From an uncultured Nitrososphaerota archaeon (lineage in GTDB: Archaea > Korarchaeota > Korarchaeia > Korarchaeales > Korarchaeaceae), in the NCBI GenBank assembly GCA_964480775.1, contig CAYZRF010000036.1, positions 1 through 12,423 of the forward strand: a DNA stretch of 12,423 bases, read 5' to 3'. Position 1 is the stretch's first letter, and each line of letters begins with the position of its first letter. A program made the translations under genes and the position numbers. The notes under the pieces were generated by a model. The model was not told the origin of the DNA. It was given only the letters and a program-made list of their open reading frames with translations, and did not search any database. Of this stretch, positions 165-12,423 are shown piece after piece.

Positions 165-1101
165 TTAATTTTCCCCTTCTTCAAACCTTGGATATAGTAG
201 GCTGTCACCGAATTCCATGAAAGCATCTGTAATTCCGTGGGCTATTAGATTCAGTTAACAAAGTCCGTAAATATCTGAATTGTACCCCTGACCGTACAAT
301 AGGAGCTTTTCAGCTTTGCCATTGCCATATTTCTCCCTAACGTACTTGTAAGATACTATTAGCATCCCTCCTGAGCCACATGCGGGATCGTAAACGCTTT
401 GCCCTGGTTTTGGATCTAGAATTTCAACTAAAAGCTGAATAACTTCCCTTGGAGTGTAAACTTCCCCTTGCTTCGCTTGAGTTGGAGCGAACTTGTACAG
501 GATGTGCTCATAGGCATCTCCTATCACATCGCTTGAAACGTACTTGTTGCTGAAGTTATACTGGTTGAATAGCTCAACTAGCTGCCTTAGTTTTTCCCTA
601 TGCTCCTGTGTAGTAAAGCCCAGAAAGCTGAACTTATCTATAACTCCTTTCAACTCTGGATTTAGCTCAGCTATTTTTATCAGAGCATTAGAAAGGTTTT
701 CGGGCAATTTCTTGATATCCTTGGTTATCTCGTCCCATAATAGTTCTCTCTTCAAGTTAAAGGTGTGATAAACCTCGTTTTTCTGCCTTTTTCTCGACCT
801 GTTCTTCATCTAGATACTTCATCAGTTCTTTCTCTTCAAACTCTTCCTTCCACGTATCACTTATGTTCTTCAAGAATAGCAGGACCAAAATGAATTTGTA
901 ATCAGTTACTGTTCTTAATATATCGTCCGCTTTGTCAACAAGAGAGTTTACAGGCTTTTGAGAGAGAAGAACGATGTGTTCGTTGTTTACACTTATGGTG
1001 AAAGCATCAAAGCTAAAAGGGTGAGAGCCATAGCTGGAGGAAAACCTCCACTCATAGGGCTTCTGGAAGAGATAGGATTCATCAGAGTCGCTTCCAATCA
1101 A
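165..1101 (-). pseudogene. hsdM: Degraded type I restriction-modification N6-adenine DNA methyltransferase subunit (HsdM-like)
   Basis: The N-terminal HsdM-type segment VDKADDILRTVTDYKFILVLLFLKNISD lies in the frame of ORF 757-1101. The remainder lies in the frame of ORF 255-809: EVYTPREVIQLLVEIL, then SAM motif I DPACGSGGML, then LLLYGQG. The frame switches within A-runs at about 776-796. An in-frame TAA sits at 255-257, and the same frame continues LNLIAHGITDAFMEFGDSLLYPRFEEGEN to TAA 165-167. No NPPF/Y catalytic motif IV follows. Confidence 0.8.
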
Positions 1102-2806: not shown

Positions 2807-3682
2807 TCAACTAATCTCCAAAACATCTCCACAATAGAATTCCCTAAAGGCAGAAGGTAACATTTTCGCTATTGCCATTTTGGCCCTAAAGCCAGTGCAA
2901 TGCATCGGAGCTATGAGTTCTGGGTTTAACTTCTTCAACTCCTTTGCAGTTCTTTCTATTCTATCTGAATCGGCATCTATAAGGTGAAATCCACCTACTA
3001 TAGCCTTTATCATCTTGATTCCAGTTAATTTCATCGCGTGAAGTGTCGTGTTAACCACTCCGCTGTGTCCGCAGCCAGTTAGAATCACGATTCCATCGCG
3101 AACTTTAGCTATAAGGGCTATATCATCTAACAGCTCATCTTGCACGAATTTCCCTTCTACAACCTTATAAAACCCATTTAACTTCTCAAAATCAGTGGTT
3201 CTCTGGATCTCTCCACTTGTTGTCACTCCCTCGAAAATCGGCACAGGCTCCTTCGAGAAAAGGAGCAAACCTCCCATGCTTTGGACTTTATCTTTTGTAA
3301 AAGGGGGCCCAGTATAAGTAAGCTTCTTTATCCCAAGGCTTGGAAGGACCGCGTATTTTTGAGAGAAGACCTCTGGGTGCATTATAACAGGTACTCTTTT
3401 GTCTATCTCTCTTAAAAATTTCAAAAGACCACCAGTGTGATCATAATGGTTGTGACTTATGACGACAGCGCTAATCTCCTTGAGATTGATTCTAAGCTCT
3501 CTAGCGTTGTTCACCAAGGGAATTCCAGTTATCCCAGTGTCCATAAGTATAGCTGTCTTAGCATCCTCTGACTCCACTTCTATCAAGAGAGAGATGCCGT
3601 TCTCTGCTAACAAAGGTCCCTCATAATGAGTTTCATTGTCAACAAGAGCTGTAATTTTGATTCTCTTCACCTCTTGTGTCAT
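2807..3682 (-). CDS. MBL-fold metallo-hydrolase (COG1237-like subfamily)
   Basis: 291 aa with an N-terminal ITALVDNE...LLAENGISLLIE segment, the H-x-H-x-D-H motif SHNHYDHTGG, and later GCGHSG and PMHCTG metal-ligand-like motifs. The ATG (3682-3680) overlaps the livF TGA (3681-3679) as ATGA. The SD GGTGAGGA lies 4-5 nt upstream. Confidence 0.85.
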   Translation of the reverse strand: MTQEVKRIKITALVDNETHYEGPLLAENGISLLIEVESEDAKTAILMDTGITGIPLVNNARELRINLKEISAVVISHNHYDHTGGLLKFLREIDKRVPVIMHPEVFSQKYAVLPSLGIKKLTYTGPPFTKDKVQSMGGLLLFSKEPVPIFEGVTTSGEIQRTTDFEKLNGFYKVVEGKFVQDELLDDIALIAKVRDGIVILTGCGHSGVVNTTLHAMKLTGIKMIKAIVGGFHLIDADSDRIERTAKELKKLNPELIAPMHCTGFRAKMAIAKMLPSAFREFYCGDVLEIS

Positions 3683-4404
3683 TTATCCTCACCGAGGATT
3701 CCGAAATACTTCTCTCTAAGATCTGGATCGTCGAGCATTTCCTTCGCACTTCTGTGGTCTTGTATCTTTCCACTAACCAGCAAATAGGCATCATCTCCTA
3801 ACTCCAAGGCAAACTGAGCTTTTTCCTCAGTCATAATTATTTTTGCCCCGGTCTCCTTTCGGATCTCCTTGATCTTGTCGTAGACTTCCATCGTTAGCTT
3901 TGGCATCAGTCCCTCGGTTGGCTCGTCCAGTAAGATAATCTTTGGCTTCTTCATCAAACCTTTAGCAAGTGCAAGCATTCTCCTCTCCCCACCGCTTAAC
4001 TTGCTTGCTTTTCTGTTAAAATATTCTTCCCTCCCTAGAACAGGGAAAAATGACAAAACCTCTTCTAACCTCTCTTCTCTCTCTTCCTTACTGAGCAAGT
4101 AACCTCCAAGCATCAAATTTTCCCTTACTGTGAGCCCGTCGAATACGTTATCCCTTTGAGGAATGTAGGAGACACCTAACCTCACTATTTTGTTTGTCGG
4201 CATTCCAACAATGTTCTTCCCATCGAACAGGATTTCTCCGGAGTAAATGTCAATCAGGCCCATTATAGTCCTCAAGAGAGTTGTCTTTCCAGCCCCGTTT
4301 GGACCTATTATGACTGTTATCTCTCCCTCCCTCAGATCCATCGAGATATCGTAAAGTATGTGTCTAGCACCATAACCCGAGTTAATTCCCTTTAGCTCGA
4401 GCAA
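3679..4404 (-). CDS. livF: Branched-chain amino acid-type ABC transporter ATP-binding protein (LivF-like)
   Basis: Walker A GPNGAGKTT, signature LSGGERRMLALAKGL, Walker B ILLDEPTEGL. TTG start with the SD GAGGTGA 4 nt upstream, embedded in the 3' end of livG. Confidence 0.9.
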   Translation of the reverse strand: MLELKGINSGYGARHILYDISMDLREGEITVIIGPNGAGKTTLLRTIMGLIDIYSGEILFDGKNIVGMPTNKIVRLGVSYIPQRDNVFDGLTVRENLMLGGYLLSKEEREERLEEVLSFFPVLGREEYFNRKASKLSGGERRMLALAKGLMKKPKIILLDEPTEGLMPKLTMEVYDKIKEIRKETGAKIIMTEEKAQFALELGDDAYLLVSGKIQDHRSAKEMLDDPDLREKYFGILGEDK

Positions 4405-4408
4405 ATTA

Positions 4409-5200
4409 TCACCTCAACTTGTACTTTTCTCCTAGATAACTCTCAACCACTTCAGGGTTCCTTATTACCTCATATGGTTTACCCTGAGCGATTATTTTAC
4501 CGTTTGCCATAGCATAAGCGTAATCTACATATCCTAGGGCTATGTCAAGCCTATGTTCAACCATAAGGATCGTATATCCGTGATCATCCCTTATTTTCCT
4601 CAAGCGCTCAAGTATGGTGTGTGCAAAGGACGGATTTACTCCAGCAATAGGTTCATCTATTAGGAGCATCTTAGCCCCGCTCATGATTGCTTTTCCTACA
4701 TCAAGTAATTTTGCGTCTCCTCCGCTCAGTTCGCCTCCAAGTAAGTCCCATTTATCGTCCAAGCCAATTATCTTGAGAACTTTGAATGCTTCCTTTACGG
4801 CCTCCCTTTCATCTTCAATCCAAAATCTTCTAACAGGCGCCCTAAAGAAGCTTTCACCTAAGTTCTTTCTCCTAGCTATTAGGATGTTCTCAAGCACTGT
4901 AAGGCTAGGGAAAATTCTAGGAATTTGAAAACTCCTGGCAAGCCCTAGTCTATATGTTTCTGAAGCTGAGAGGTTTGTTATGTCCATTCCGTTAAACCAA
5001 ACTTTCCCACCATCCTTCCTAATGTAACCAGTTACTAAATTTATCCAAGTTGTCTTTCCAGCTCCATTTGGGCCAAATAAAACCGAAAAGGAACCTTCTT
5101 GTATTTCAAGGCTTACATTACCGACTGCAACTAGTTCTCCAAACTTCTTTGTCAAGTTTTTTGTTCTTAGAATAACCTTTTTCCCTATCTCGTTGCTCAA
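4409..5200 (-). CDS. livG: Branched-chain amino acid-type ABC transporter ATP-binding protein (LivG-like)
   Basis: Walker A GPNGAGKTT, signature LSGGDAKLLDVGKAI, Walker B MLLIDEPIAG, H-loop VEHR, and a LivG-type C-terminal extension (PEVVESYLG). TTG start. Confidence 0.9.
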   Translation of the reverse strand: MSNEIGKKVILRTKNLTKKFGELVAVGNVSLEIQEGSFSVLFGPNGAGKTTWINLVTGYIRKDGGKVWFNGMDITNLSASETYRLGLARSFQIPRIFPSLTVLENILIARRKNLGESFFRAPVRRFWIEDEREAVKEAFKVLKIIGLDDKWDLLGGELSGGDAKLLDVGKAIMSGAKMLLIDEPIAGVNPSFAHTILERLRKIRDDHGYTILMVEHRLDIALGYVDYAYAMANGKIIAQGKPYEVIRNPEVVESYLGEKYKLR

Positions 5201-5229
5201 TTCCTCATCCCAACTCTGCAGGTGATTTT

Positions 5230-5247
5230 AAAGAAAAATAAAAAGGT
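5230..5247 (-). terminator. Oligo-T tract immediately after livK (possible partial intra-operon terminator), adjacent to a TTTAAAA box
   Basis: The minus strand after the livK TGA reads CACCTTTTTTATTTTTCTTTAAAATCACC. The T6 and T5 runs match archaeal termination signals. TTTAAAA (about 5226-5232) lies 25 nt upstream of the livG TTG. Confidence 0.3.
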
Positions 5248-5262
5248 GAGTAGTGATTTAGA

Positions 5263-6570
5263 TCAAGGTCCGAAGCCTTCTGCCCACTCCATCTTGTCGT
5301 CGGCGGCGTAGTAGACTCCTACCTCTGTCCACTCTACCCCAGCAGCCGTCTCCACTGGACGCCAAAGGCTGTAGTCTGCAATCGCTAGATCGCCATTTTC
5401 GTTAAGCATTATATCCCCTGACGCACCTGTGTATACATCTGCTACCTTAGGAAGTATTTCTTTTACCTTCATTGCATCATACTCATTTACAGCAGCTAAT
5501 GCTAAGGCTACTACCCAGACGGAGTCATACGCATCGTAGGCATATATTGTGGGCTCTCTACCGAGCTTGCTCAATATTTCATCGTGAACGTGCCAATAAG
5601 TACGGGTCATGGGTATCTTGAACATCGTGCTAGTGAAGTTCGTCTTCAGGGCAAATTCTGTTTGTGTCGGATGTCCTTCCATATCCGCTAACTCTGGGAT
5701 CATTACTGTTCCATCTGTACCGAACCACCTTACCTTAGAGAGGTCTGGATACTCGGCTGCCACTTCGAAGACAGAAAGAACTTGCCTGTAGCAGATCAAC
5801 AGAACCCCTATCTTGTTGTGAGGAACTCCATTGTTCAAAGCGCTTTTAACTGCTGCATCAATCTCCTCGACTGTCGGAGAGAATTCTAATGTTTCTGGAC
5901 TCCAAGCTATGTGTTGAATCACAGTTCCTCCAAGGGCCTCGAACTTATCGCAAGCCGATTTATCGAGACCAGCTCCCCAATCGTTATCCAGGTAACATGA
6001 AACAAGGTGAGTTATGCCTGAGGAAAAGATAGCTGACGCTATGGCAGGTCCTTGAAGATCATCTATAGCACAGAATCTGAACAAGTTGTCTCCTGGGATG
6101 CTAAGCTCTATCGCCGTTGAGGATGGGCTTATAAAGATAACATTGTGAGCTTCCGCGTAAGATCTTATAGAGGCACATGCTGGACTCATCATAGGACCTA
6201 ACACTATCTTTGCTCCCTTTCCAACTACAGATTCAAACTTCTCGAGTGCTACTTCTGGCGTCGAGGCCGTGTCCTCATGGATCAATTTTATGTGCCACTT
6301 AGCCCCTGCACGTGCCAAGAACTCATTAACGTCCTTCTCAGCTACTTCATAAGCCGCCTTAATGTCCTCACCGTATGTTGTCAATGCTCCGCTTAGGTCC
6401 TCAAGTGCTCCTATCAGTATTTCTCCACTCAATCCTGTTGCTGCAGGAGTTGGAGGAGGCGTTGTTGATCCAGGTGTCCCTGATGGAGCTGGTTTTTTTA
6501 CCACATAGCCTGCTCCGAAGCCTGCTACGAAGACTGCTATTAACAAAATACCTAAAATCTGGTTCTTCAT
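5263..6570 (-). CDS. livK: Leu/Ile/Val-binding-protein-type (type 1 periplasmic-binding fold) substrate-binding protein, membrane-anchored
   Basis: N-terminal hydrophobic anchor ILGILLIAVFVAGFGAG, then the Thr/Pro linker PAPSGTPGSTTPPPTPAATG. A LivK/LivJ-like core follows: IGALEDLSGALTTYGEDIKAAYEVAEKDVN...HEDTASTPEVA...IVLGPMMS. I prefer ATG 6570 (purine-rich GGAAGGG upstream). The alternative is ATG 6615. Confidence 0.85.
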   Translation of the reverse strand: MKNQILGILLIAVFVAGFGAGYVVKKPAPSGTPGSTTPPPTPAATGLSGEILIGALEDLSGALTTYGEDIKAAYEVAEKDVNEFLARAGAKWHIKLIHEDTASTPEVALEKFESVVGKGAKIVLGPMMSPACASIRSYAEAHNVIFISPSSTAIELSIPGDNLFRFCAIDDLQGPAIASAIFSSGITHLVSCYLDNDWGAGLDKSACDKFEALGGTVIQHIAWSPETLEFSPTVEEIDAAVKSALNNGVPHNKIGVLLICYRQVLSVFEVAAEYPDLSKVRWFGTDGTVMIPELADMEGHPTQTEFALKTNFTSTMFKIPMTRTYWHVHDEILSKLGREPTIYAYDAYDSVWVVALALAAVNEYDAMKVKEILPKVADVYTGASGDIMLNENGDLAIADYSLWRPVETAAGVEWTEVGVYYAADDKMEWAEGFGP

Positions 6571-6630
6571 TCCAAACCCTTCCTTCTGGGATTTTGGTTG
6601 ACGCAAACGATTCATTGTTAGGTAAAAAGG

Positions 6631-6653
6631 TTTTGGACAGCTTTACTTAACCA
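6631..6653 (-). promoter_or_regulatory. Copy A of a conserved 23-nt motif between livM and livK, next to a T7/TATA-like tract
   Basis: Plus strand ttttggacagctTtacttAacca matches 9009-9031 (ttttggacagctCtacttGacca) at 21 of 23 positions. On the minus strand it is preceded by AGCTTTTTTTAGCT (A7 at 6662-6668 on the plus strand). Confidence 0.45.
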
Positions 6654-6686
6654 CTTGAGCTAAAAAAAGCTAAGAAGGGATTTTCT

Positions 6687-7769
6687 CTAAAATTTGAGTA
6701 TTTCCTTCTTCATCCTCTCTATCTCTTTTCTCTCAATTGGAATCTCGGGCTTTTCTGGTAGGAGCCCCCTAGGGTTGTATATCAACATGAGCATAAGCAC
6801 AATTCCTAGCAAAAGACCGTCGAGCCAAACTGGTGAGAAAGGGAGAAATGTTTCCAAATCAGCTTTGTAGAAAGTTATTAGTCTCTTCATAGTTATGAAG
6901 ACAGAAGTACCTAAGACAGTCCCCTTACTGCTTGCAAGTCCTCCTAATATCACCATCGCTATGGGCCAAAAAGTCCAAGTGACCCTCTCAAAGTGTAGTC
7001 CTATGACATAGCCCTGATAAAAGGCAAATAAGGCTCCTGCTATTCCAGTTAAGGAGTAGGATATCACCATGACCTTGATGTAAAGCCTTCTTACGTCCCT
7101 TCCTAGTGCTTCAATGCTCTTTTCATCATCTCTAACGGCCTTAAGTAGTCTTCCCATTGGAGATCTAGCCAAAGAAATACAATAGTATCCTACCATGGCT
7201 AGGACCAACGCTGAAACGACTATTATACCAAGAGTCCTCATTGGACCGGGTGAGAGACCAAAGAGATTGTAGTGAGTAAGCCATCTAAATGGATCAGGAA
7301 CCGGAACCCCGTGTTCGCCCCTTATTATCGGTTCCCAATGGTAAATTATTGTGTTAAAGCTTATCTGGATTGAAAGAAGGGTAACACCTAGGTAGAAAAG
7401 CCTAATTCCCCTAAATATAGGCAGAGATGCCAGGAGTCCTAAGCTCCCTGCTGCTACAGCTGCTAAGACAAGAGTTAAGATTAATATTCCTATTGATAGA
7501 GCTGGGCTTTTCTCTAAAGCCAAGTTAACCTTATCTACCACTAAGATGACATGTTCTAAGTAATCCTCCTTTATTCCTAACATCTTGGCCACGAGCCTTC
7601 CTGGAAGGTATCCACAGAGAAATCCACCAGCTCCAGCCGCCATTGCCCTACCGAAGTCTGGAATCCCGGTGTATCCGTATGCAAGGTTATAGCTAAGGGT
7701 TATTATGAGGAATATTATTATGTATATCACAAGAACTGTGAAAAACTCTGCTCCTGGAAAAGAGATCAT
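6687..7769 (-). CDS. livM: Branched-chain amino acid-type ABC transporter permease (LivM-like)
   Basis: Polytopic protein with LivM-like segments (NLAYGYTGIPDFGRAMAAGAGGF; RSPMGRLLKAVRDDEKSIEALG). I prefer ATG 7769-7767, which overlaps the livH TGA (7768-7766) as ATGA. The SD GGGAGGGTG ends about 7-8 nt upstream. The ORF track starts at 7814. Confidence 0.88.
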   Translation of the reverse strand: MISFPGAEFFTVLVIYIIIFLIITLSYNLAYGYTGIPDFGRAMAAGAGGFLCGYLPGRLVAKMLGIKEDYLEHVILVVDKVNLALEKSPALSIGILILTLVLAAVAAGSLGLLASLPIFRGIRLFYLGVTLLSIQISFNTIIYHWEPIIRGEHGVPVPDPFRWLTHYNLFGLSPGPMRTLGIIVVSALVLAMVGYYCISLARSPMGRLLKAVRDDEKSIEALGRDVRRLYIKVMVISYSLTGIAGALFAFYQGYVIGLHFERVTWTFWPIAMVILGGLASSKGTVLGTSVFITMKRLITFYKADLETFLPFSPVWLDGLLLGIVLMLMLIYNPRGLLPEKPEIPIERKEIERMKKEILKF

Positions 7770-8701
7770 CCGAGCACCCTCCCACCATGAAATCTTCCAA
7801 TTACCTTTCCCCATGGAAGGCTCTTCATTCCTTCTGGGAAGACGAAAATCGTGATGATCATGGTCAAGAGAGGAACTAGGAAGCTATAAGATAGGATCCA
7901 AGACCCTATAATACTAGAAAGATACGATACCAAGGCAGTTTGAGCTATTGCCACCATGTATCCTCCTAATGACGCATCATATATCGTGGTGAACCCGCCC
8001 AAAACGCACCCGCTGAAGACTGTAACCACAACGAATAAAGAAGTGGTTGGGTTAGAGATCCAATAAACTGGGAAAAAGGCCCCTGCTACTGCAGGAAGAG
8101 CTCCTACAATGAACCAAGTAATCAAGTAAATGAACTCTGTGTTGACTCCATCGCACTCCGCAAGGAATGGCTTCTCACCTATTGCTTTCATCGCCATCCC
8201 AAGATTAGTCTTTGTAAATAGAAAGTGCATTACAATGAGTACTGAGAAAAAGAGGATCGTTGAAATTACAAACACTCCGTCCATTCCAAATATTTGCCTG
8301 TCATATACTGAGAAAGTAAAATCCCTAGCCATTATCTTAAAGCTTCTTGTCAAATAATCTGCGTATATGTTTATTATGGCCATTAAAAAAATGTCTAAGG
8401 CCAGCGTAGCTATCATGAGCTCCTCACTTGTTGCTCCTCTCCTTCTTAACGGCTTGATCAATAGTAAATATGTAAGGGCCCCGACAAGCCCTCCTCCTAT
8501 GAAACAGAGAGGAATAGAGGAGTAAAGTCCTAATCCAATTAGCTTTATGCATGTAAAGGCTATGTATATGCCCACAGTCCCAAAAGTCGCAACCGCAAAA
8601 TTTGGGACGTTGGTTTTAGATAGGGCAAGGGTTGCAGACATAGCCATAAAGGCAATTACATTAGCAAAGACAATGGCATGCGATATTAAAGGGGGTAGAA
8701 T
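7766..8701 (-). CDS. livH: Branched-chain amino acid-type ABC transporter permease (LivH-like); the 5' end probably lies upstream of the first ATG
   Basis: LivH-like motifs include NFAVATFGTVG (cf. INFAHGE), TNLGMAMKAIGEKPFLAECDGVN and CVLGGFTTIYDASLGG. The first ATG is 8647, but the frame stays open to 8722 and encodes ILPPLISHAIVFANVIAF, which completes TM1. The SD GGGAGGGAGG (8710-8719) lies 8 nt before ATT 8701-8699. Confidence 0.85.
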   Translation of the reverse strand: MLPPLISHAIVFANVIAFMAMSATLALSKTNVPNFAVATFGTVGIYIAFTCIKLIGLGLYSSIPLCFIGGGLVGALTYLLLIKPLRRRGATSEELMIATLALDIFLMAIINIYADYLTRSFKIMARDFTFSVYDRQIFGMDGVFVISTILFFSVLIVMHFLFTKTNLGMAMKAIGEKPFLAECDGVNTEFIYLITWFIVGALPAVAGAFFPVYWISNPTTSLFVVVTVFSGCVLGGFTTIYDASLGGYMVAIAQTALVSYLSSIIGSWILSYSFLVPLLTMIITIFVFPEGMKSLPWGKVIGRFHGGRVLG

Positions 8702-9125: not shown

Positions 9126-9833
9126 CTATGAAAACTGAGTTTTCGCGTTGATTTTTCTTACTAATAACCTGACAGCTTCCTCTATGTTCTCTCCACTAAG
9201 GGCGCTTGTTTCGATATAACCATCGAAACCAAGTTCCTCAGCTAGCTTCGTTGGATCCACCCCAATGCGGATCCTCAGATCTCTCTTCGTTCCTACAAGG
9301 ACCAATGGGACCCTACCAATGTTGTTCTCTGCTTCTTTTACCCATCCTGGCACATCTTTTATGCTCTGATCATCTACGAGGCTGAAGGCAATGAATCCTC
9401 CAGAACAACCCTTGTAGAATGCTGGTCTCATGAACCCAAACCTCTCTTGACCAGCCATGTCCCATATAACCAGCTTAAACAGCGTTCCGTCTATCACCAT
9501 GTCTTTAGAGTAGAAATCAACACCTATAGTCATCTTATAGCTCTTGTCAAATACTCCTAGAGCGAATCTCCTGCAAAAAGAGGTCTTACCAACGCCTCCA
9601 TTTCCAGAGATGAAGAGTTTGAGTCTTCTAACGTCCTTAAGGATGCTTACCTTTAAGAGAAGATCTGCAGCCTCATCTGGCCCCAATTTCTCTGCTGCCT
9701 CATAGTAGAGGTCCTGAATGACCTTATCAGTGAGTTCATCGCTCTCCTTCAGACCCCTATTGGTCAACCATTTATCAAGGTCTTTCCCAGCATATTTTCT
9801 TAATCTGGGTAGAAAGTCCCCAAGTTTAGGCAT
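9126..9833 (-). CDS. Rab/Ras-like small GTPase with an N-terminal helical extension of about 70 aa
   Basis: G1 GNGGVGKTS; switch I YKMTIGVDF; G3 KLVIWDMAGQERF; G4 LVGTKRDL ([NT]KxD); G5 ETSALSGENIEEA. I prefer ATG 9833 (MPKLGDF...), because the track's GTG at 9842 is part of the SD GGTGG, 5 nt upstream of that ATG. Confidence 0.88.
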   Translation of the reverse strand: MPKLGDFLPRLRKYAGKDLDKWLTNRGLKESDELTDKVIQDLYYEAAEKLGPDEAADLLLKVSILKDVRRLKLFISGNGGVGKTSFCRRFALGVFDKSYKMTIGVDFYSKDMVIDGTLFKLVIWDMAGQERFGFMRPAFYKGCSGGFIAFSLVDDQSIKDVPGWVKEAENNIGRVPLVLVGTKRDLRIRIGVDPTKLAEELGFDGYIETSALSGENIEEAVRLLVRKINAKTQFS

Positions 9834-9944
9834 GATAACCACCGCTTGCCGCCATAAAGGACGACGGCACCTTTGATTTGTTTCCTAGCCTTCTACATTT
9901 GAAGCTTAAAATAAGATCTTTTCCTTTAATGTTCATACCGTAAG

Positions 9945-9960
9945 GAACAAAGCCAAAAAG
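9945..9960 (-). terminator. T-rich tract after the membrane-protein gene
   Basis: The minus strand reads CTTCCTTTTTGGCTTTGTTCC, about 35-50 nt after the stop at 9996. A TTATTTTAAG box (about 9905-9915) follows upstream of the GTPase gene. Confidence 0.2.
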
Positions 9961-9995
9961 GAAGAGCTTTCCCCATCTTTCTTTAGAGAGCATTA

Positions 9996-10799
9996 CTAGT
10001 CATTCTGCAGTTTAACTTTTGATACGATCTTTCTAGCTTGACTGTAATAGAAGAAGGGGAGAAATGCTGAAATGGAGGGATAAATAAGCCTAATTAATGA
10101 GATGAGAAACTTACCTGAGAATATGGGGAGTTCCATTCTTTTAAGCCAAAAAGATACGTCTACAAATACCGTCAGAAAACTTACGATTTGAAAGACGATC
10201 ATGATGCTCCTCAGAAGCCCTTTTGGTAGAGTTAAACTTCCTATAGTCGACAGAGCTAGACACAGTATGTCTAGCAGTATGTGAAGCAGTAGGATTGATG
10301 GTACATCGAAGATATTCCTTACCTCTTGAAAGGGTGGGGCCGTTTTTGCTATAAGCATGTTGAAAAGGAAGAACATCGAGCCCAGAAGGATTAACAACAA
10401 TACCAAGATCTTCTTCCAATCCATTAGAGCGAACCTTGTGGAAAGGACTAAAGTCATTCCTAAGATTAAAGGGGCATAAGAAGTTAGCTCAATTGCCGCT
10501 ATGATAGAGAGGAGTTTCCAAGCTGGCTTAGAGAGCAGTAAAAGCTTTGGTATTCCAATGAGGAGAAGGTAAATGCCAAAGAGAAGGCAATACTTTCTAG
10601 CTAAGGACTTAGGTCTGTGAAGTTTTGAGGATGAGAACCAAGCGACAGCTCCTATTATCACAAGAGAAGGTACTATTAGCTCGGGATAAGGGTATCTCAC
10701 GATCTTCCTTGTAATAAGGGTGATTGTGAGGAGGGATGTGAATAGGCTCGATGTCAATATCAGGCTGTAGTCGGCCAGTGAAAGAGCAGGCTTTTCCAT
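9996..10799 (-). CDS. Polytopic integral membrane protein of unknown family (about 7-8 hydrophobic spans by eye)
   Basis: 267-aa ORF, very Leu/Ile/Phe-rich, with short basic loops (RKIVRYP, HRPKSLARK, MDWKK, WLKRM). ATG 10799 lies 8 nt after the TAG of the upstream Roadblock-like gene. I recognised no catalytic or transporter motif. Confidence 0.7.
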   Translation of the reverse strand: MEKPALSLADYSLILTSSLFTSLLTITLITRKIVRYPYPELIVPSLVIIGAVAWFSSSKLHRPKSLARKYCLLFGIYLLLIGIPKLLLLSKPAWKLLSIIAAIELTSYAPLILGMTLVLSTRFALMDWKKILVLLLILLGSMFFLFNMLIAKTAPPFQEVRNIFDVPSILLLHILLDILCLALSTIGSLTLPKGLLRSIMIVFQIVSFLTVFVDVSFWLKRMELPIFSGKFLISLIRLIYPSISAFLPFFYYSQARKIVSKVKLQND

Positions 10800-10807
10800 G
10801 AACGATC

Positions 10808-11692
10808 CTATATCTGCGACTCGACTTTTTCAAAAAGCTTTTTCAAAGCCTCCTTAAGTTCCATTCCCTTCCCTCTTAAGTAGTCCAAATCCCTTCTCAA
10901 TAGCCTTTCTCCGTCCTCATACAGCAGCACGTATAAGTTCAACGTTCGTTCGTATAGATCCTGCAGCTCTGCAGGCACATAGAATGGCGTCTCTTGTTTT
11001 TCAGATGAGATAATTTCTCTTAGATCTTTTATCCTCTCGAACAAAACATCCAAGTCAGCTTCTTCTTCATTTATTCCTAGTAAGAGAAGTCCGTTCCCTA
11101 CTATCGCTACTAGAACTGGAGCTATTTCCGATTCAATCCTGAGAATGGCATCTTTCCTACGCAAACCTCTAGATCGAGCTATTTCTTTATAGACTCTCTC
11201 ACAAACCTCCCTTATCCTCTCTTCACTGGCCTGGGTTCTGATACTCCACTCACTATCAACATCTCGATAGGCTATGAATTCAATGCCTAACGCTCCACTG
11301 AAATAATAGGGAACAAATTCCTTTTGGCCAACATAACTCAAGACCGTCGCGTCTATCTCTTTCTTAAACCCTCTAAACTTTCCTTTTTCACTTTCATGGA
11401 TAGCTAAGAATTTGTTTGAGATACCTTCGCATATGGCCTCAGCGGTCTCTATCTTCACATCATTGTCAGAAAAGACTATGAATAAGAGGTCTCTTGCCCT
11501 TTTGAATGCGAGATACTGGGACCCTAACATAACTTTTCCAACATCAGTTTTTCCAATCTGTTCCATTAACGGTGTAATCAAATTCACTATGCTAGCTGTG
11601 GCTTCTATCTGCTCAGGCGGCAGCGATCCATAGCTTCTTCTGATTATCACCATGCCTGCATTGTTTGTTATTATCACGTCCCTAACTGGCAA
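10808..11692 (-). CDS. Protein with two tandem Roadblock/LC7 (MglB/longin-like) domains and a helical C-terminal tail
   Basis: Residues about 3-100 are VRDVIITNNAGMVIIRRSYGSL..EQIEATASIVNLITPLMEQIG..VGKVMLGSQYLAFKRARDLLFIVFSDNDVKIETAE. This fits the Roadblock pattern: two strands, a long helix, two strands, then a C-terminal helix. Residues about 125-225 repeat the pattern: IEFIAYRDVDSEWSIRT..ERIREVCERVYKEIARS..AILRIESEIAPVLVAIVGNGLLLLGINEEEADLDVLFERI. TTG start preceded by GGTGAT. The assignment is by pattern only. Confidence 0.65.
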   Translation of the reverse strand: MPVRDVIITNNAGMVIIRRSYGSLPPEQIEATASIVNLITPLMEQIGKTDVGKVMLGSQYLAFKRARDLLFIVFSDNDVKIETAEAICEGISNKFLAIHESEKGKFRGFKKEIDATVLSYVGQKEFVPYYFSGALGIEFIAYRDVDSEWSIRTQASEERIREVCERVYKEIARSRGLRRKDAILRIESEIAPVLVAIVGNGLLLLGINEEEADLDVLFERIKDLREIISSEKQETPFYVPAELQDLYERTLNLYVLLYEDGERLLRRDLDYLRGKGMELKEALKKLFEKVESQI

Positions 11693-11915
11693 GTATCACC
11701 AGCCAGCAAACTATTTCAATTGGCCGATTTAAACATGAGTTCTTTCAAGAACCACTCAGTATTATCCGTTAGTTTTTAAGAAATTGTTTGCTCTCTGAGG
11801 TTTTAATTTTAGAACCAATAGTGCCCTCTCTCTCAACAGATATTCTTCCACGACCTCCATGACCACTTGCCCATCTGGTTTTTGGCTCGTGGACGCTATC
11901 GTTACTCGCCCCAAA

Positions 11916-11933
11916 TTGAGCCTTCCGGCTCAA
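11916..11933. repeat. Perfect 7+7 inverted repeat TTGAGCC-TTCC-GGCTCAA in the divergent intergenic region
   Basis: Read directly: ttgagcc (11916-11922), loop ttcc, ggctcaa (11927-11933). It lies about 80 nt upstream of ATG 12012 and about 225 nt upstream of the Roadblock-gene start. Confidence 0.5.
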
Positions 11934-11969
11934 CTTCCTTTATCTGCAAAACGTTGTCCGAAATTGCGA

Positions 11970-12003
11970 GCCTCCTTTGAGAAATCTTATTAAAGAAGGA
12001 GGC
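11970..12003 (+). promoter_or_regulatory. Hairpin that sequesters the SD of the 12012 gene (anti-SD GCCTCCTT paired with AAGGAGGC)
   Basis: gcctcctt (11970-11977) is the exact reverse complement of aaggaggc (11996-12003), giving 8 uninterrupted base pairs and an 18-nt loop. The 3' arm is the SD AAGGAGG, 8 nt upstream of ATG 12012. Confidence 0.45.
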
Positions 12004-12011
12004 AATAAATT

Positions 12012-12423
12012 ATGAAGATGAAAAACAAAATCTTGACCGCTACTATTGTGGTTTTAGTTTTGGCATCTGGCTTGATTGGCTGGAAATATTTTAAAGGAGA
12101 AAAAGAAATGATTTTTGTAACAGGAACCATAAAATACATTTCTATAGATGGCGGATTTTACGGAATTATCACAGAAAAAGGGGAAAAATATCTGCCTATT
12201 AACTTGCCAGAGGAATTTAAAAAGGATGGTCTAAGAGTTTGGTTTAAAGCAAAGCCAAGAAAGGTAGCTACAATTCAAATGTGGGGGAAGCCAATTGAGA
12301 TTTTGGAGATTATAAAAGCTGAAGCGTGGGCGCTAAAGGAATCGGCACAAAAGATATTATTAAGTACAAGGGTAGCTTGCTGGTATCAAACCATAACAGA
12401 TTATAAAGCCTTTAACAGAACCT
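12012..12423 (+). CDS. Signal-anchored or secreted hypothetical protein, partial (runs off the right edge)
   Basis: Manual translation, open to the window end: MKMKNKILTATIVVLVLASGLIGWKYFKGEKEMIFVTGTIKYISIDGGFYGIITEKGEKYLPINLPEEFKKDGLRVWFKAKPRKVATIQMWGKPIEILEI.... Strong SD AAGGAGG. An N-terminal basic segment plus a hydrophobic helix is followed by a small beta-rich domain. It is absent from the ORF track, presumably because there is no stop codon within the window. Confidence 0.7.
   Translation, partial: MKMKNKILTATIVVLVLASGLIGWKYFKGEKEMIFVTGTIKYISIDGGFYGIITEKGEKYLPINLPEEFKKDGLRVWFKAKPRKVATIQMWGKPIEILEIIKAEAWALKESAQKILLSTRVACWYQTITDYKAFNRT

Follow-up and report, generated by a model that had tools for sequence, protein, structure and literature searches.

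A stretch of 12,423 nucleotides (nt) from an uncultured korarchaeal archaeon (contig CAYZRF010000036.1; hereafter the window) carries three co-directional open reading frames (ORFs) on its minus strand, at 9126-11692, in the order gene X, membrane gene, GTPase gene (Table 1). We find that this trio recurs as a cassette in other Korarchaeota genomes and that it has decayed repeatedly, and we consider below whether its products might form a small-GTPase switch at the cell membrane.

The minus-strand ORFs bear out the three co-directional genes, and the coordinates, that an earlier note on this DNA had given. The X and membrane genes nearly abut: the stop codon of X ends at 10808 and the ATG of the membrane gene is at 10799, so that the gap is exactly 8 nt, the figure reported before, and the same spacer measures 0-10 nt in other loci. 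Such spacing implies co-transcription, and makes coupled translation possible. The GTPase gene lies 162 nt downstream of the membrane gene if it starts at its ATG, or 153 nt if it starts at the alternative GTG given by the ORF finder (9126..9842). The real start is taken to be the ATG at 9833 and not the GTG at 9842, because all full-length homologues begin MPK(L/V). Both X and the GTPase gene are preceded by a Shine-Dalgarno sequence (SD), that of the GTPase gene being GGTGG at 9839-9843, which agrees with the earlier description of a GTPase gene about 160 nt downstream with an SD of its own.

Products of the three genes

The GTPase is, judged by its motifs, a canonical Ras-superfamily switch with a complete G1-G5 set. 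It matches the Pfam families Ras (E = 6.5e-38, 130.3 bits, cut-off 21.6) and Roc (1e-24, 87.5 bits, cut-off 27), as well as TIGR00231 small_GTP (5e-18, 65.4 bits, cut-off 42.5). Beyond the P-loop are T102 of switch I (in TIGVDF), the switch II sequence DMAGQE with Q129, the G4 motif TKRD (182-185), in which Thr replaces the usual Asn, and the G5 motif TSAL (209-212); all five motifs are conserved across the family alignment. The residue equivalent to Ras G12 is Gly in the window GTPase, but Pro or Ala in the GTPases of the second neighbourhood described below, locus B (GNPRVGKT, GNAAVGKT). The best PDB sequence matches are a Thorarchaeota Rab (7ezb, 2.7e-27) and Rab1B (4e-27), with Rab1, Rab11 and Rab32 also found, and on this similarity ranking, headed by the Thorarchaeota Rab and Rab1, we call the protein Rab-like. 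Together with the Korarchaeota lineage, this fits the earlier note, which had called the GTPase Rab-like and archaeal. Compared by eye with the RabF consensus sequences, IGVDF is presumably RabF1 and KLVIW the approximate counterpart of RabF2 (KLQIW), while RabF3-F5 would be partial (RFGFMR, FYKGCSG, FIAFSLVD). The Asgard ‘Rab-like’ proteins have been argued by Vargova et al. to be not true Rabs.

Two ends of the GTPase are distinctive. The C-terminus reads ...KINAKTQFS and has no Cys, as had been remarked before, nor is there one in any family member; the Rab hallmark of a C-terminal Cys prenylation motif with a hypervariable tail is thus missing. At the other end, an extension of ~70 amino acids (aa) precedes the G domain and is kept in every full-length family member. 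The subfamily that bears it (P0005-P0011) aligns over its full length at 54-98% identity, whereas the next-nearest archaeal GTPases, from Korarchaeota and many Asgard lineages, align over the G domain only, at 35-46% identity. This extension is a candidate docking element for X or for the membrane protein. An Arf-like N-terminal amphipathic helix was considered and rejected, with a hydrophobic moment for residues 2-15 of 0.25-0.53 that was inconsistent across the family. On a separate archaeal contig (L006:6001-12655; also L007), three small Ras/Arf-like GTPase genes lie within 7 kb, two of them adjacent, with genes for a WD40 beta-propeller protein and a large DEAD-box helicase between and with no X-like or membrane partner.

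Protein X gave nothing at threshold in Pfam, in NCBIfam, or in phmmer and profile searches of the PDB, and neither X nor five relatives matched Robl_LC7 (PF03259) at E ≤ 1; a match to DUF956 (E = 0.078) was dismissed as noise. Its family is small, with four close homologues and a total of six proteins or clusters in an exhaustive hidden Markov model search of 1.84 billion representative proteins. We modelled X with AlphaFold2 from five sequences, assigned secondary structure with DSSP and compared the model with the PDB using Foldseek. The model, with a predicted local distance difference test score (pLDDT) of 71 and a predicted template modelling score (pTM) of 0.60, consists of two b-b-a-b-b-b-a(-a) domains (b, strand; a, helix) at residues 5-130 and 137-229, followed by a three-helix tail. 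The modelled topology is that of a longin (b-b-a-b-b-b-a-a) and not that of a Roadblock (a-b-b-a-b-b-b), since strands come first and the N-terminal helix is lacking. The second domain is modelled at pLDDT mostly 75-90. The most conserved motif of X, RRSYGSL...TASIxNLxxPLMEQ, falls in the b2-a1 region of the first domain; R18 does not vary in seven sequences and R19 is kept within the close family, in a region of pLDDT <50 beside strand b2. Comparison of the two domains with hhalign found no in-register similarity (probability 29%).

Foldseek places X among multi-longin proteins. Its top matches are to Mon1-Ccz1 (8c7g_C, 6.7e-6; 8jbe_C, 9.9e-6; 9lol_B, 1.1e-4) and Fuzzy-Inturned (9rs8_B, 1.6e-4), with a BLOC-3 subunit also found and 8zwc listed. 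After these rank COPzeta, AP sigma, Sec22b and VAMP7, all of them single longins, with target-normalised template modelling (TM) scores of 0.45-0.69 (at probability 1.0, 0.65-0.69 for Sec22b 1ifq, 0.52 for COPzeta and 0.52-0.53 for AP sigma), and the Roadblock neighbours are LAMTOR and the Rag C-terminal domain. Two relatives of X also yield sub-threshold longin matches: P0004 to Fuz_longin_1 (PF19036, ‘first longin domain of FUZ, MON1 and HPS1’; E = 0.014, 16.0 bits, cut-off 26.1) and the X of L019 to Longin (E = 0.079, 13.3 bits, cut-off 26.2); window X has neither. The earlier note had described the 294-aa product as a tandem-Roadblock protein. At the level of fold this stands, in that the model and Foldseek give two Roadblock-superfamily domains and both longins and Roadblocks are recovered. 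The specific assignment to Roadblock does not, since there is no Robl_LC7 match and the topology is longin; the profile searches, below threshold throughout, offer no more than the longin hints in two relatives.

The C-terminal domain of X (conserved residues Y247, L251, Y254, L265, D268, L272 and L283) is possibly a wingless winged-helix remnant. The region equivalent to the X tail in P0127, a distant relative of X (E 1e-7), has a sub-threshold match to the winged-helix family Linker_histone (E = 0.0024). P0127 (L011:6001-6954; also L012) is 317 aa long, shares the architecture of X and is flanked by HAD hydrolase and methyltransferase genes, with no GTPase or membrane gene. It was rejected as a heterodimer partner of X on the basis of contig coverage in the same assembly (30x versus 8.5x, a 3.5-fold difference); it probably belongs to another organism, because its coverage differs from that of the module contig. 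A further protein, P0128 (L013:565-1338, 257 aa), has in common with X only the first longin-type domain and the helical domain at the C-terminus, and has a winged-helix-like end (...GYLKLVS), which suggests that the architecture of X came about when a second longin domain was inserted into a longin plus winged-helix protein.

The membrane protein is an orphan with no Pfam, NCBIfam or PADLOC family; its relatives amount to 10 clusters in 5.8 billion proteins, and members of its 90% cluster (RLG47171.1 and RLG46176.1) are annotated ‘Candidatus Korarchaeota archaeon’. Its sequence contains eight hydrophobic segments, modelled as eight helices (pLDDT 70, pTM 0.68), and no soluble domain, in keeping with the earlier description of an orphan polytopic protein with 7-8 transmembrane segments. 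The positive-inside count, made on P0130, is 13 Lys plus Arg inside versus 2 outside and favours an N-in/C-in orientation. All the invariant loop residues (H61, S65, A67 and R68; R122, F123 and A124; P192, G194 and L195) lie on three predicted cytoplasmic loops, with none on L1-2 and L7-8, which are predicted to be outer loops; the conserved face would therefore be turned toward the compartment of X and the GTPase. Foldseek returned weak matches to seven-transmembrane bundles (G-protein-coupled receptors, GPCRs, and microbial rhodopsin; best E 7.6e-3, TM-score 0.4-0.56) and nothing at E ≤ 1e-3. We set a GPCR-like reading aside as unsupported, since no match reached E ≤ 1e-3, the helices number eight and not seven, and the PDB is biased toward GPCRs. 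Pfam and NCBIfam searches revealed no transporter or kinase motif and no histidine kinase (HK) or HAMP domain.

Conservation and decay of the cassette

The X-membrane-GTPase gene order recurs in two unrelated neighbourhoods, which we refer to as locus A and locus B. Locus A is bordered by genes for a TyrRS/TrpRS-type aminoacyl-tRNA synthetase, a HAD protein, a LIV-type (branched-chain amino-acid) ABC transporter and SHMT; the full trio is present in the window and in L015 (96-98% identical), while L004 and L017 have X and the membrane gene on contigs that end before any GTPase. Locus B is bordered by FlK, SIS and CDF cation-efflux genes and has the full trio in L008, L009 (GCA_003661265.1), L010 and L019; the contigs of L022 (GCA_037917635.1) and L023 break off within the GTPase gene. 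From one locus to the other the proteins have diverged to ~31% identity for X, ~28% for the membrane protein and 54-59% for the GTPase. The genes of locus B abut or overlap: X is separated from the membrane gene by 0-10 nt, and the membrane gene overlaps the GTPase gene by 17 nt. Because the same families occur in the same order in two unrelated neighbourhoods, the adjacency of the trio is not due to chance. Thus the synteny on which the earlier note had made its proposal depend is found in other genomes, with six full loci in two neighbourhoods. No fourth conserved gene was found in the cassette among the loci compared. With the exception of two distant stand-alone relatives of X, all X and membrane-protein family members whose context was examined lie within the cassette, and all cassette instances are in metagenome-assembled genomes (MAGs) of Korarchaeota.

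Divergence within the cassette points to selection on all three genes. Between the window and a species 72% identical, the proportions of nonsynonymous differences (pN) are 0.14, 0.18 and 0.09 for the three genes, compared with synonymous proportions (pS) of 0.70, 0.80 and 0.76; X, the membrane gene and the GTPase gene are, by this measure, real genes under purifying selection. X evolves quickly, being 73% and 40% identical in comparisons in which SHMT is 94% and 79% identical.

The cassette has nevertheless decayed in several lineages. In four assemblies (L001, L002, L014 and L016) of the 72%-identical sister species, a ~0.6 kb deletion (L001:8903-9974) places GTPase residue 72 directly after membrane-protein residue 194, in a different frame; the L001 junction reads ...TLPKA/FHIRQ... 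compared with ...KLFISGNGGVGKT, and the first GTPase start is M101, past the P-loop. This deletion is recent or polymorphic, because a full-length GTPase of 234 aa (P0147) shares the 90% cluster of the L001-type sequences. The junction is also one frame shift short of a natural membrane protein-GTPase fusion. In L020 (5561-7281) and L021 (Korarchaeota archaeon EYP68), only the last 19 codons of X are left, and frameshifts have broken the membrane gene into four pieces and the GTPase gene into three, while the PFOR, aminoacyl-tRNA synthetase, HAD and LIV genes that flank the cassette are undamaged. In a locus-B neighbourhood, L005 (5899-6594), one deletion has removed X, the membrane gene and codons 1-38 of the GTPase gene. 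What is left of the GTPase shares 87% identity with a full-length relative and has TISVGF in place of TIGVDF as well as D154N and P162L; L005 and the near-identical P0012 are the only sequences changed at otherwise invariant switch-I positions. The L005 contig comes from the same sample as L001.

The joint loss of genes argues for functional interdependence of the trio, and its repetition amounts to a natural experiment that supports it; similarly, that GTPase residues 1-38 disappeared along with X and the membrane gene hints at a joint role of the N-terminal extension with both. One locus departs from this pattern. In L003 (8942-9435), X (40% identical) and the GTPase (58% identical) are intact, and between them is a 490-nt non-coding gap with no membrane gene or detectable remnant of one; the G+C content of L003 is 57.6%, compared with 42% for the window. 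L003 thus argues for a core made up of X and the GTPase, with the membrane protein either accessory or encoded elsewhere.

The spacer before the GTPase gene is itself of interest. On the minus strand, a 64-nt block within it (9873-9936) contains the TATA-like sequence TATTTTAA at 9906-9913 and is near-identical between the window and L020, although the remaining spacer has diverged and the flanking L020 genes are pseudogenes. The block is probably an internal promoter or 5' leader for the GTPase gene. Folding of the spacer gave no RNA-structure signal (z = 0.06), and structured RNA there or elsewhere was rejected on this folding score and the lack of Rfam or tRNA matches. A second, putative promoter would lie in the divergent intergenic region upstream of X.

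Table 1. Features of the cassette and its spacers in the window
Feature	Coordinates	Strand	Description
Gene X	10808..11692	-	294 aa, predicted cytoplasmic di-longin protein; TTG start; stop included
X, first longin-type domain (modelled)	11303..11692	-	Residues 1-130; b5-9, b15-17, a26-45, b51-56, b59-66, b69-76, a81-100, a106-130
X, second longin/Roadblock-like domain (modelled)	10988..11302	-	Residues 131-235; b137-143, b149-153, a157-172, b183-186, b193-198, b201-207, a214-229
X, C-terminal three-helix domain (modelled)	10808..10987	-	Residues 236-294; helices 241-257, 261-274, 279-293
X-membrane gene spacer	10800..10807	-	8 nt
Membrane gene	9996..10799	-	267 aa, orphan; ATG start; 8 transmembrane helices, predicted N-in/C-in
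Membrane gene-GTPase spacer	9834..9995	-	162 nt; T-run 9955-9959; 64-nt block 9873-9936; SD GGTGG
GTPase gene	9126..9833	-	235 aa, Rab-like Ras-superfamily GTPase; ATG start; stop included
GTPase N-terminal extension	9624..9833	-	Residues 1-70, MPKL..., family-specific
P-loop GNGGVGKT	9582..9605	-	GTPase residues 77-84, invariant columns
Divergent intergenic region upstream of X	11693..12011		319 nt; TATA-like TTTAAAT 11727-11733; SD GGTGAT 11695-11700

Downstream of the cassette on the same strand are the LIV-type ABC transporter and a metallo-beta-lactamase-fold gene. The transporter of the window (3679-8647, minus strand) and that of L001 (10114-14970) are non-orthologous between these close relatives: LivG is 41.6% identical where SHMT is 93.6% identical, and the L001 genes are in a different order, with the binding-protein gene first. 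The L020 transporter is of the window type (82%). Amino-acid sensing through the adjacent transporter, by analogy with Rag/GATOR, was rejected because the transporter is absent in L003 and locus B and is a different paralogue in L001. Similarly, a reading as anti-phage defence had no support in PADLOC, which gave no match for X or the membrane protein and P-loop noise only for the GTPase (E = 0.05). Upstream of X, the window differs from L001 and L020, in which HAD and TyrRS/TrpRS-type aminoacyl-tRNA synthetase genes precede X, so that a rearrangement breakpoint lies just upstream of the window cassette. The gene found there instead, on the plus strand (12012-12423), overruns the end of the window; it encodes at least 137 aa beginning MKMKNKILTATIVVLVLASGLIGW..., with an N-terminal signal or anchor helix. 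At the other end of the window (255-1101, minus strand), two overlapping ORFs of 184 and 114 aa with the HsdM-like sequence ...DPACGSGGML... look like the frameshift-split halves of a type I restriction-modification N6-adenine methylase, and L001 has an N6_Mtase fragment at the equivalent position past SHMT.

A possible membrane-addressed GTPase switch

We favour, with modest confidence, a reading in which the cassette is a GTPase switch, X is its cognate regulator and the membrane protein supplies the membrane address. The three proteins would then form a self-contained small-GTPase switch at the cytoplasmic face of the korarchaeal cell membrane, resembling in minimal, operon-encoded form the eukaryotic membrane switches that pair a GTPase with a longin regulator. 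The Rab-like GTPase, which has no lipid anchor, would be the switch; X would be its dedicated regulator or platform, most likely contacting the switch regions through its first longin domain; and the 8-helix membrane protein may use its conserved cytoplasmic loops to work as an anchor, a receptor or a regulated effector, with the N-terminal extension of the GTPase possibly serving as the docking element. The analysis establishes the gene structure, the fold class of X, the GTPase motifs, the eight-helix architecture of the membrane protein and the conserved linkage and joint decay of the genes; the physical interactions, the direction of regulation and the cellular output are inferences. The characterised longin and Roadblock partners of Ras-superfamily GTPases all bind the switch regions, whether they act as guanine nucleotide exchange factors (GEFs; Mon1-Ccz1, TRAPP, DENN), as GTPase-activating proteins (GAPs; MglB, FLCN, NPRL2, SMCR8) or as a scaffold (Ragulator). 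Of these roles we mildly prefer that of a GEF for X. The difference from a GAP is weak; it comes from the top structural matches, which are GEF subunits, and from the absence of the GP motif.

If X were instead a GAP in the same assembly, which we regard as rather unlikely, there would be precedents in MglB acting on MglA, FLCN-FNIP, GATOR1 (NPRL2) and C9orf72-SMCR8. The Foldseek list for X includes single-domain Roadblock and longin matches, among them the FLCN complex (8dhb_A), LAMTOR and the Rag C-terminal domain. With its catalytic Gln, and with Gly where Ras has G12, the window GTPase should be responsive to a GAP, and the conserved R18-R19 pair of X is a candidate source of an arginine finger. 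In Ras, Pro or Ala at the G12 position usually hinders an inserted arginine finger, and the Pro and Ala at this position in the locus-B GTPases speak against a GAP there. The longin GAPs are recognisable by a GP motif in the loop between strands b1 and b2 (PMC12290439); it is absent from X, which has N-x-A-G in that loop, with G13 invariant and no Pro. Thus, although the only biochemically established relationship between a prokaryotic Roadblock protein and a GTPase is that of a GAP (PMC4316618), both the missing motif and the best structural matches, which are GEF subunits, favour the exchange-factor alternative.

A distinctly unlikely arrangement is one in which the membrane protein is the output, a transporter, channel or receptor of the seven-transmembrane type that the GTPase and X gate or from which they receive a signal, much as in the actinobacterial conservon. 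In the window, L001 and L020 the cassette does adjoin the ABC transporter for branched-chain amino acids, but neither L003 nor any locus-B locus has this neighbourhood. The model of the membrane protein gives only seven-transmembrane-bundle matches, but none reaches a Foldseek E of 1e-3, such matches are expected for any up-down bundle when GPCRs dominate the membrane entries of the PDB, and the protein has eight helices and no transporter or kinase motif. The conserved cytoplasmic loops would suit this arrangement as well, although in L003 X and the GTPase persist without any membrane gene. Finally, there may be no module at all, the genes being fast-evolving, dispensable and lineage-specific, adjacent through kinship, and X being an unrelated PAS/GAF-like or winged-helix regulator. 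That every instance is in a Korarchaeota MAG, that the locus decays repeatedly and that the distant X relative P0127 stands alone without a GTPase would all be expected on such a view, and X has weaker Foldseek matches to phytochrome PAS-GAF-PHY chains (E 3e-3 to 1e-2, probability 0.5-0.8). We nevertheless consider it highly improbable, given that the trio is kept in two neighbourhoods at 28-58% identity with reading frames that abut or overlap, that pN is far below pS in all three genes, that the genes decay jointly, and that the longin/Roadblock matches of X reach probability 1.0 with per-domain TM-scores above those of the PAS/GAF matches.

Several observations weigh against the switch reading that we favour. 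The membrane protein is not obligatory, since L003 keeps only X and the GTPase; the frequent decay of the cassette indicates a module that is non-essential; and the GTPase gene of the window is uncoupled from X and the membrane gene by the 162-nt spacer and its probable promoter. X is not recognised as a longin or a Roadblock at threshold by any profile method, and its first domain, the presumed GTPase-binding part, is the least confident portion (residues 11-33, pLDDT <50) of a model that averages 71 overall. Moreover, X has two longin domains and not three, no second heterodimer subunit was found, and the whole-chain TM-score of X against the tri-longin GEFs is 0.24-0.30; X therefore matches these GEFs in the series of its domains and not in their mutual arrangement. 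Because the cassette is confined to a single archaeal class, its synteny could partly reflect shared ancestry, and its very narrow distribution, its uncultured host and its dispensability limit how far any conclusion extends.

Comparison with known systems

Modules that combine a GTPase with a Roadblock or longin protein are already known, and the cassette is best judged against them. The closest structural counterparts of X are the tri-longin RabGEFs (Mon1-Ccz1, Fuzzy-Inturned/CPLANE and HPS1-HPS4/BLOC-3), which, like X, consist of serial longin-type domains; they give the best structural matches, have Rab-family clients and act on the membrane surface. X differs from them in having two longins and a three-helix tail in ~300 aa, compared with 400-900 aa, in having no detectable sequence homology to them and in being encoded in an operon with its presumed client. 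It seems to us rather unlikely that X is a minimal non-Asgard relative of the multi-longin Rab GEFs and the cassette a complete three-part Rab circuit in which a membrane receptor replaces the lipid anchor. If X were a true relative of those GEFs, membrane-addressed Rab switching with longin GEFs would have existed, or could have been assembled, in TACK archaea, and the cassette would offer a tractable recombinant system for studying the membrane recruitment of anchor-less archaeal Rab-like GTPases.

Three prokaryotic systems resemble the cassette in organisation. In MglA/MglB, a small GTPase is encoded beside a Roadblock-superfamily regulator (PMC4316618), but MglB is a single Robl_LC7 domain, which X does not match, there is no dedicated membrane protein, and the GTPase described here scores as Ras/Rab-like and not as MglA. 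The actinobacterial conservon CvnA-CvnB-CvnC-CvnD is the one described prokaryotic locus with a membrane protein, a Roadblock protein and a Ras-superfamily GTPase, and its parts interact in a nucleotide-dependent manner; it is a precedent for an arrangement that the earlier note had not recognised as a characterised system. The resemblance is limited, however, as CvnA is a membrane histidine kinase with HAMP and HK domains whereas the cassette protein has eight helices and neither domain, and the cassette has no CvnC equivalent, a GTPase that is Rab-like and not of MglA group 2, and an archaeal host. The third is a three-gene archaeal neighbourhood, an Asgard operon that encodes a LAMTOR1-like Roadblock protein, a Rab-like GTPase and a DENN-domain protein (Liu et al., bioRxiv 10.1101/2020.10.19.343400). 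The cassette lacks a DENN domain and is found in Korarchaeota, and no membrane protein was reported in the Asgard operon.

Two eukaryotic arrangements offer further parallels. In the longin GAP complexes (FLCN-FNIP, GATOR1 NPRL2-NPRL3 and C9orf72-SMCR8), a small GTPase at a membrane is the direct target of a longin domain, and NPRL2 and NPRL3 combine a longin with a small C-terminal domain, as does X; X differs in having no GP motif, no assignable arginine finger and no DENN domain, and the known clients of these complexes are Rag or Arf GTPases. In the signal recognition particle receptor, the small GTPase SRbeta is anchored by a transmembrane segment and bound by the longin-like SRX domain of SRalpha; SRbeta is Arf-related and carries the anchor itself. 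SRX was not among the listed Foldseek matches of X.

In full-text searches of the literature on Korarchaeota small GTPases, on longin, Roadblock and Rab-like proteins of Korarchaeota and on archaeal tri-longin proteins, we found no description of the cassette, and the only korarchaeal GTPase discussed in the papers found is ArfR, which was acquired horizontally. Prenylation sites are absent from archaeal Rab-like GTPases, and localisation to membranes through protein-protein interaction has been proposed as a possibility (PMC4915359). For MK-D1, an Asgard archaeon in culture, GTPase-regulator pairs cannot be read from the genome, because most of its GTPase genes do not share an operon with a Roadblock or longin gene (PMC10933270). 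Outside the Asgard archaea, the cassette unambiguously matches one Rab-like GTPase to one multi-longin protein and one membrane protein, and it makes testable whether an archaeal longin protein is a GEF or a GAP, whether a membrane protein can stand in for a lipid anchor, and what role the N-terminal extension has. It also defines two protein families that match no Pfam or NCBIfam model above threshold. Relative to MglA/MglB, the conservon and the Asgard operon, what is new is a two-longin protein with a domain series like that of the tri-longin GEFs, its orphan partner with eight transmembrane helices, and a Rab-like GTPase with an N-terminal extension of its own, all in Korarchaeota and not in Asgard archaea.

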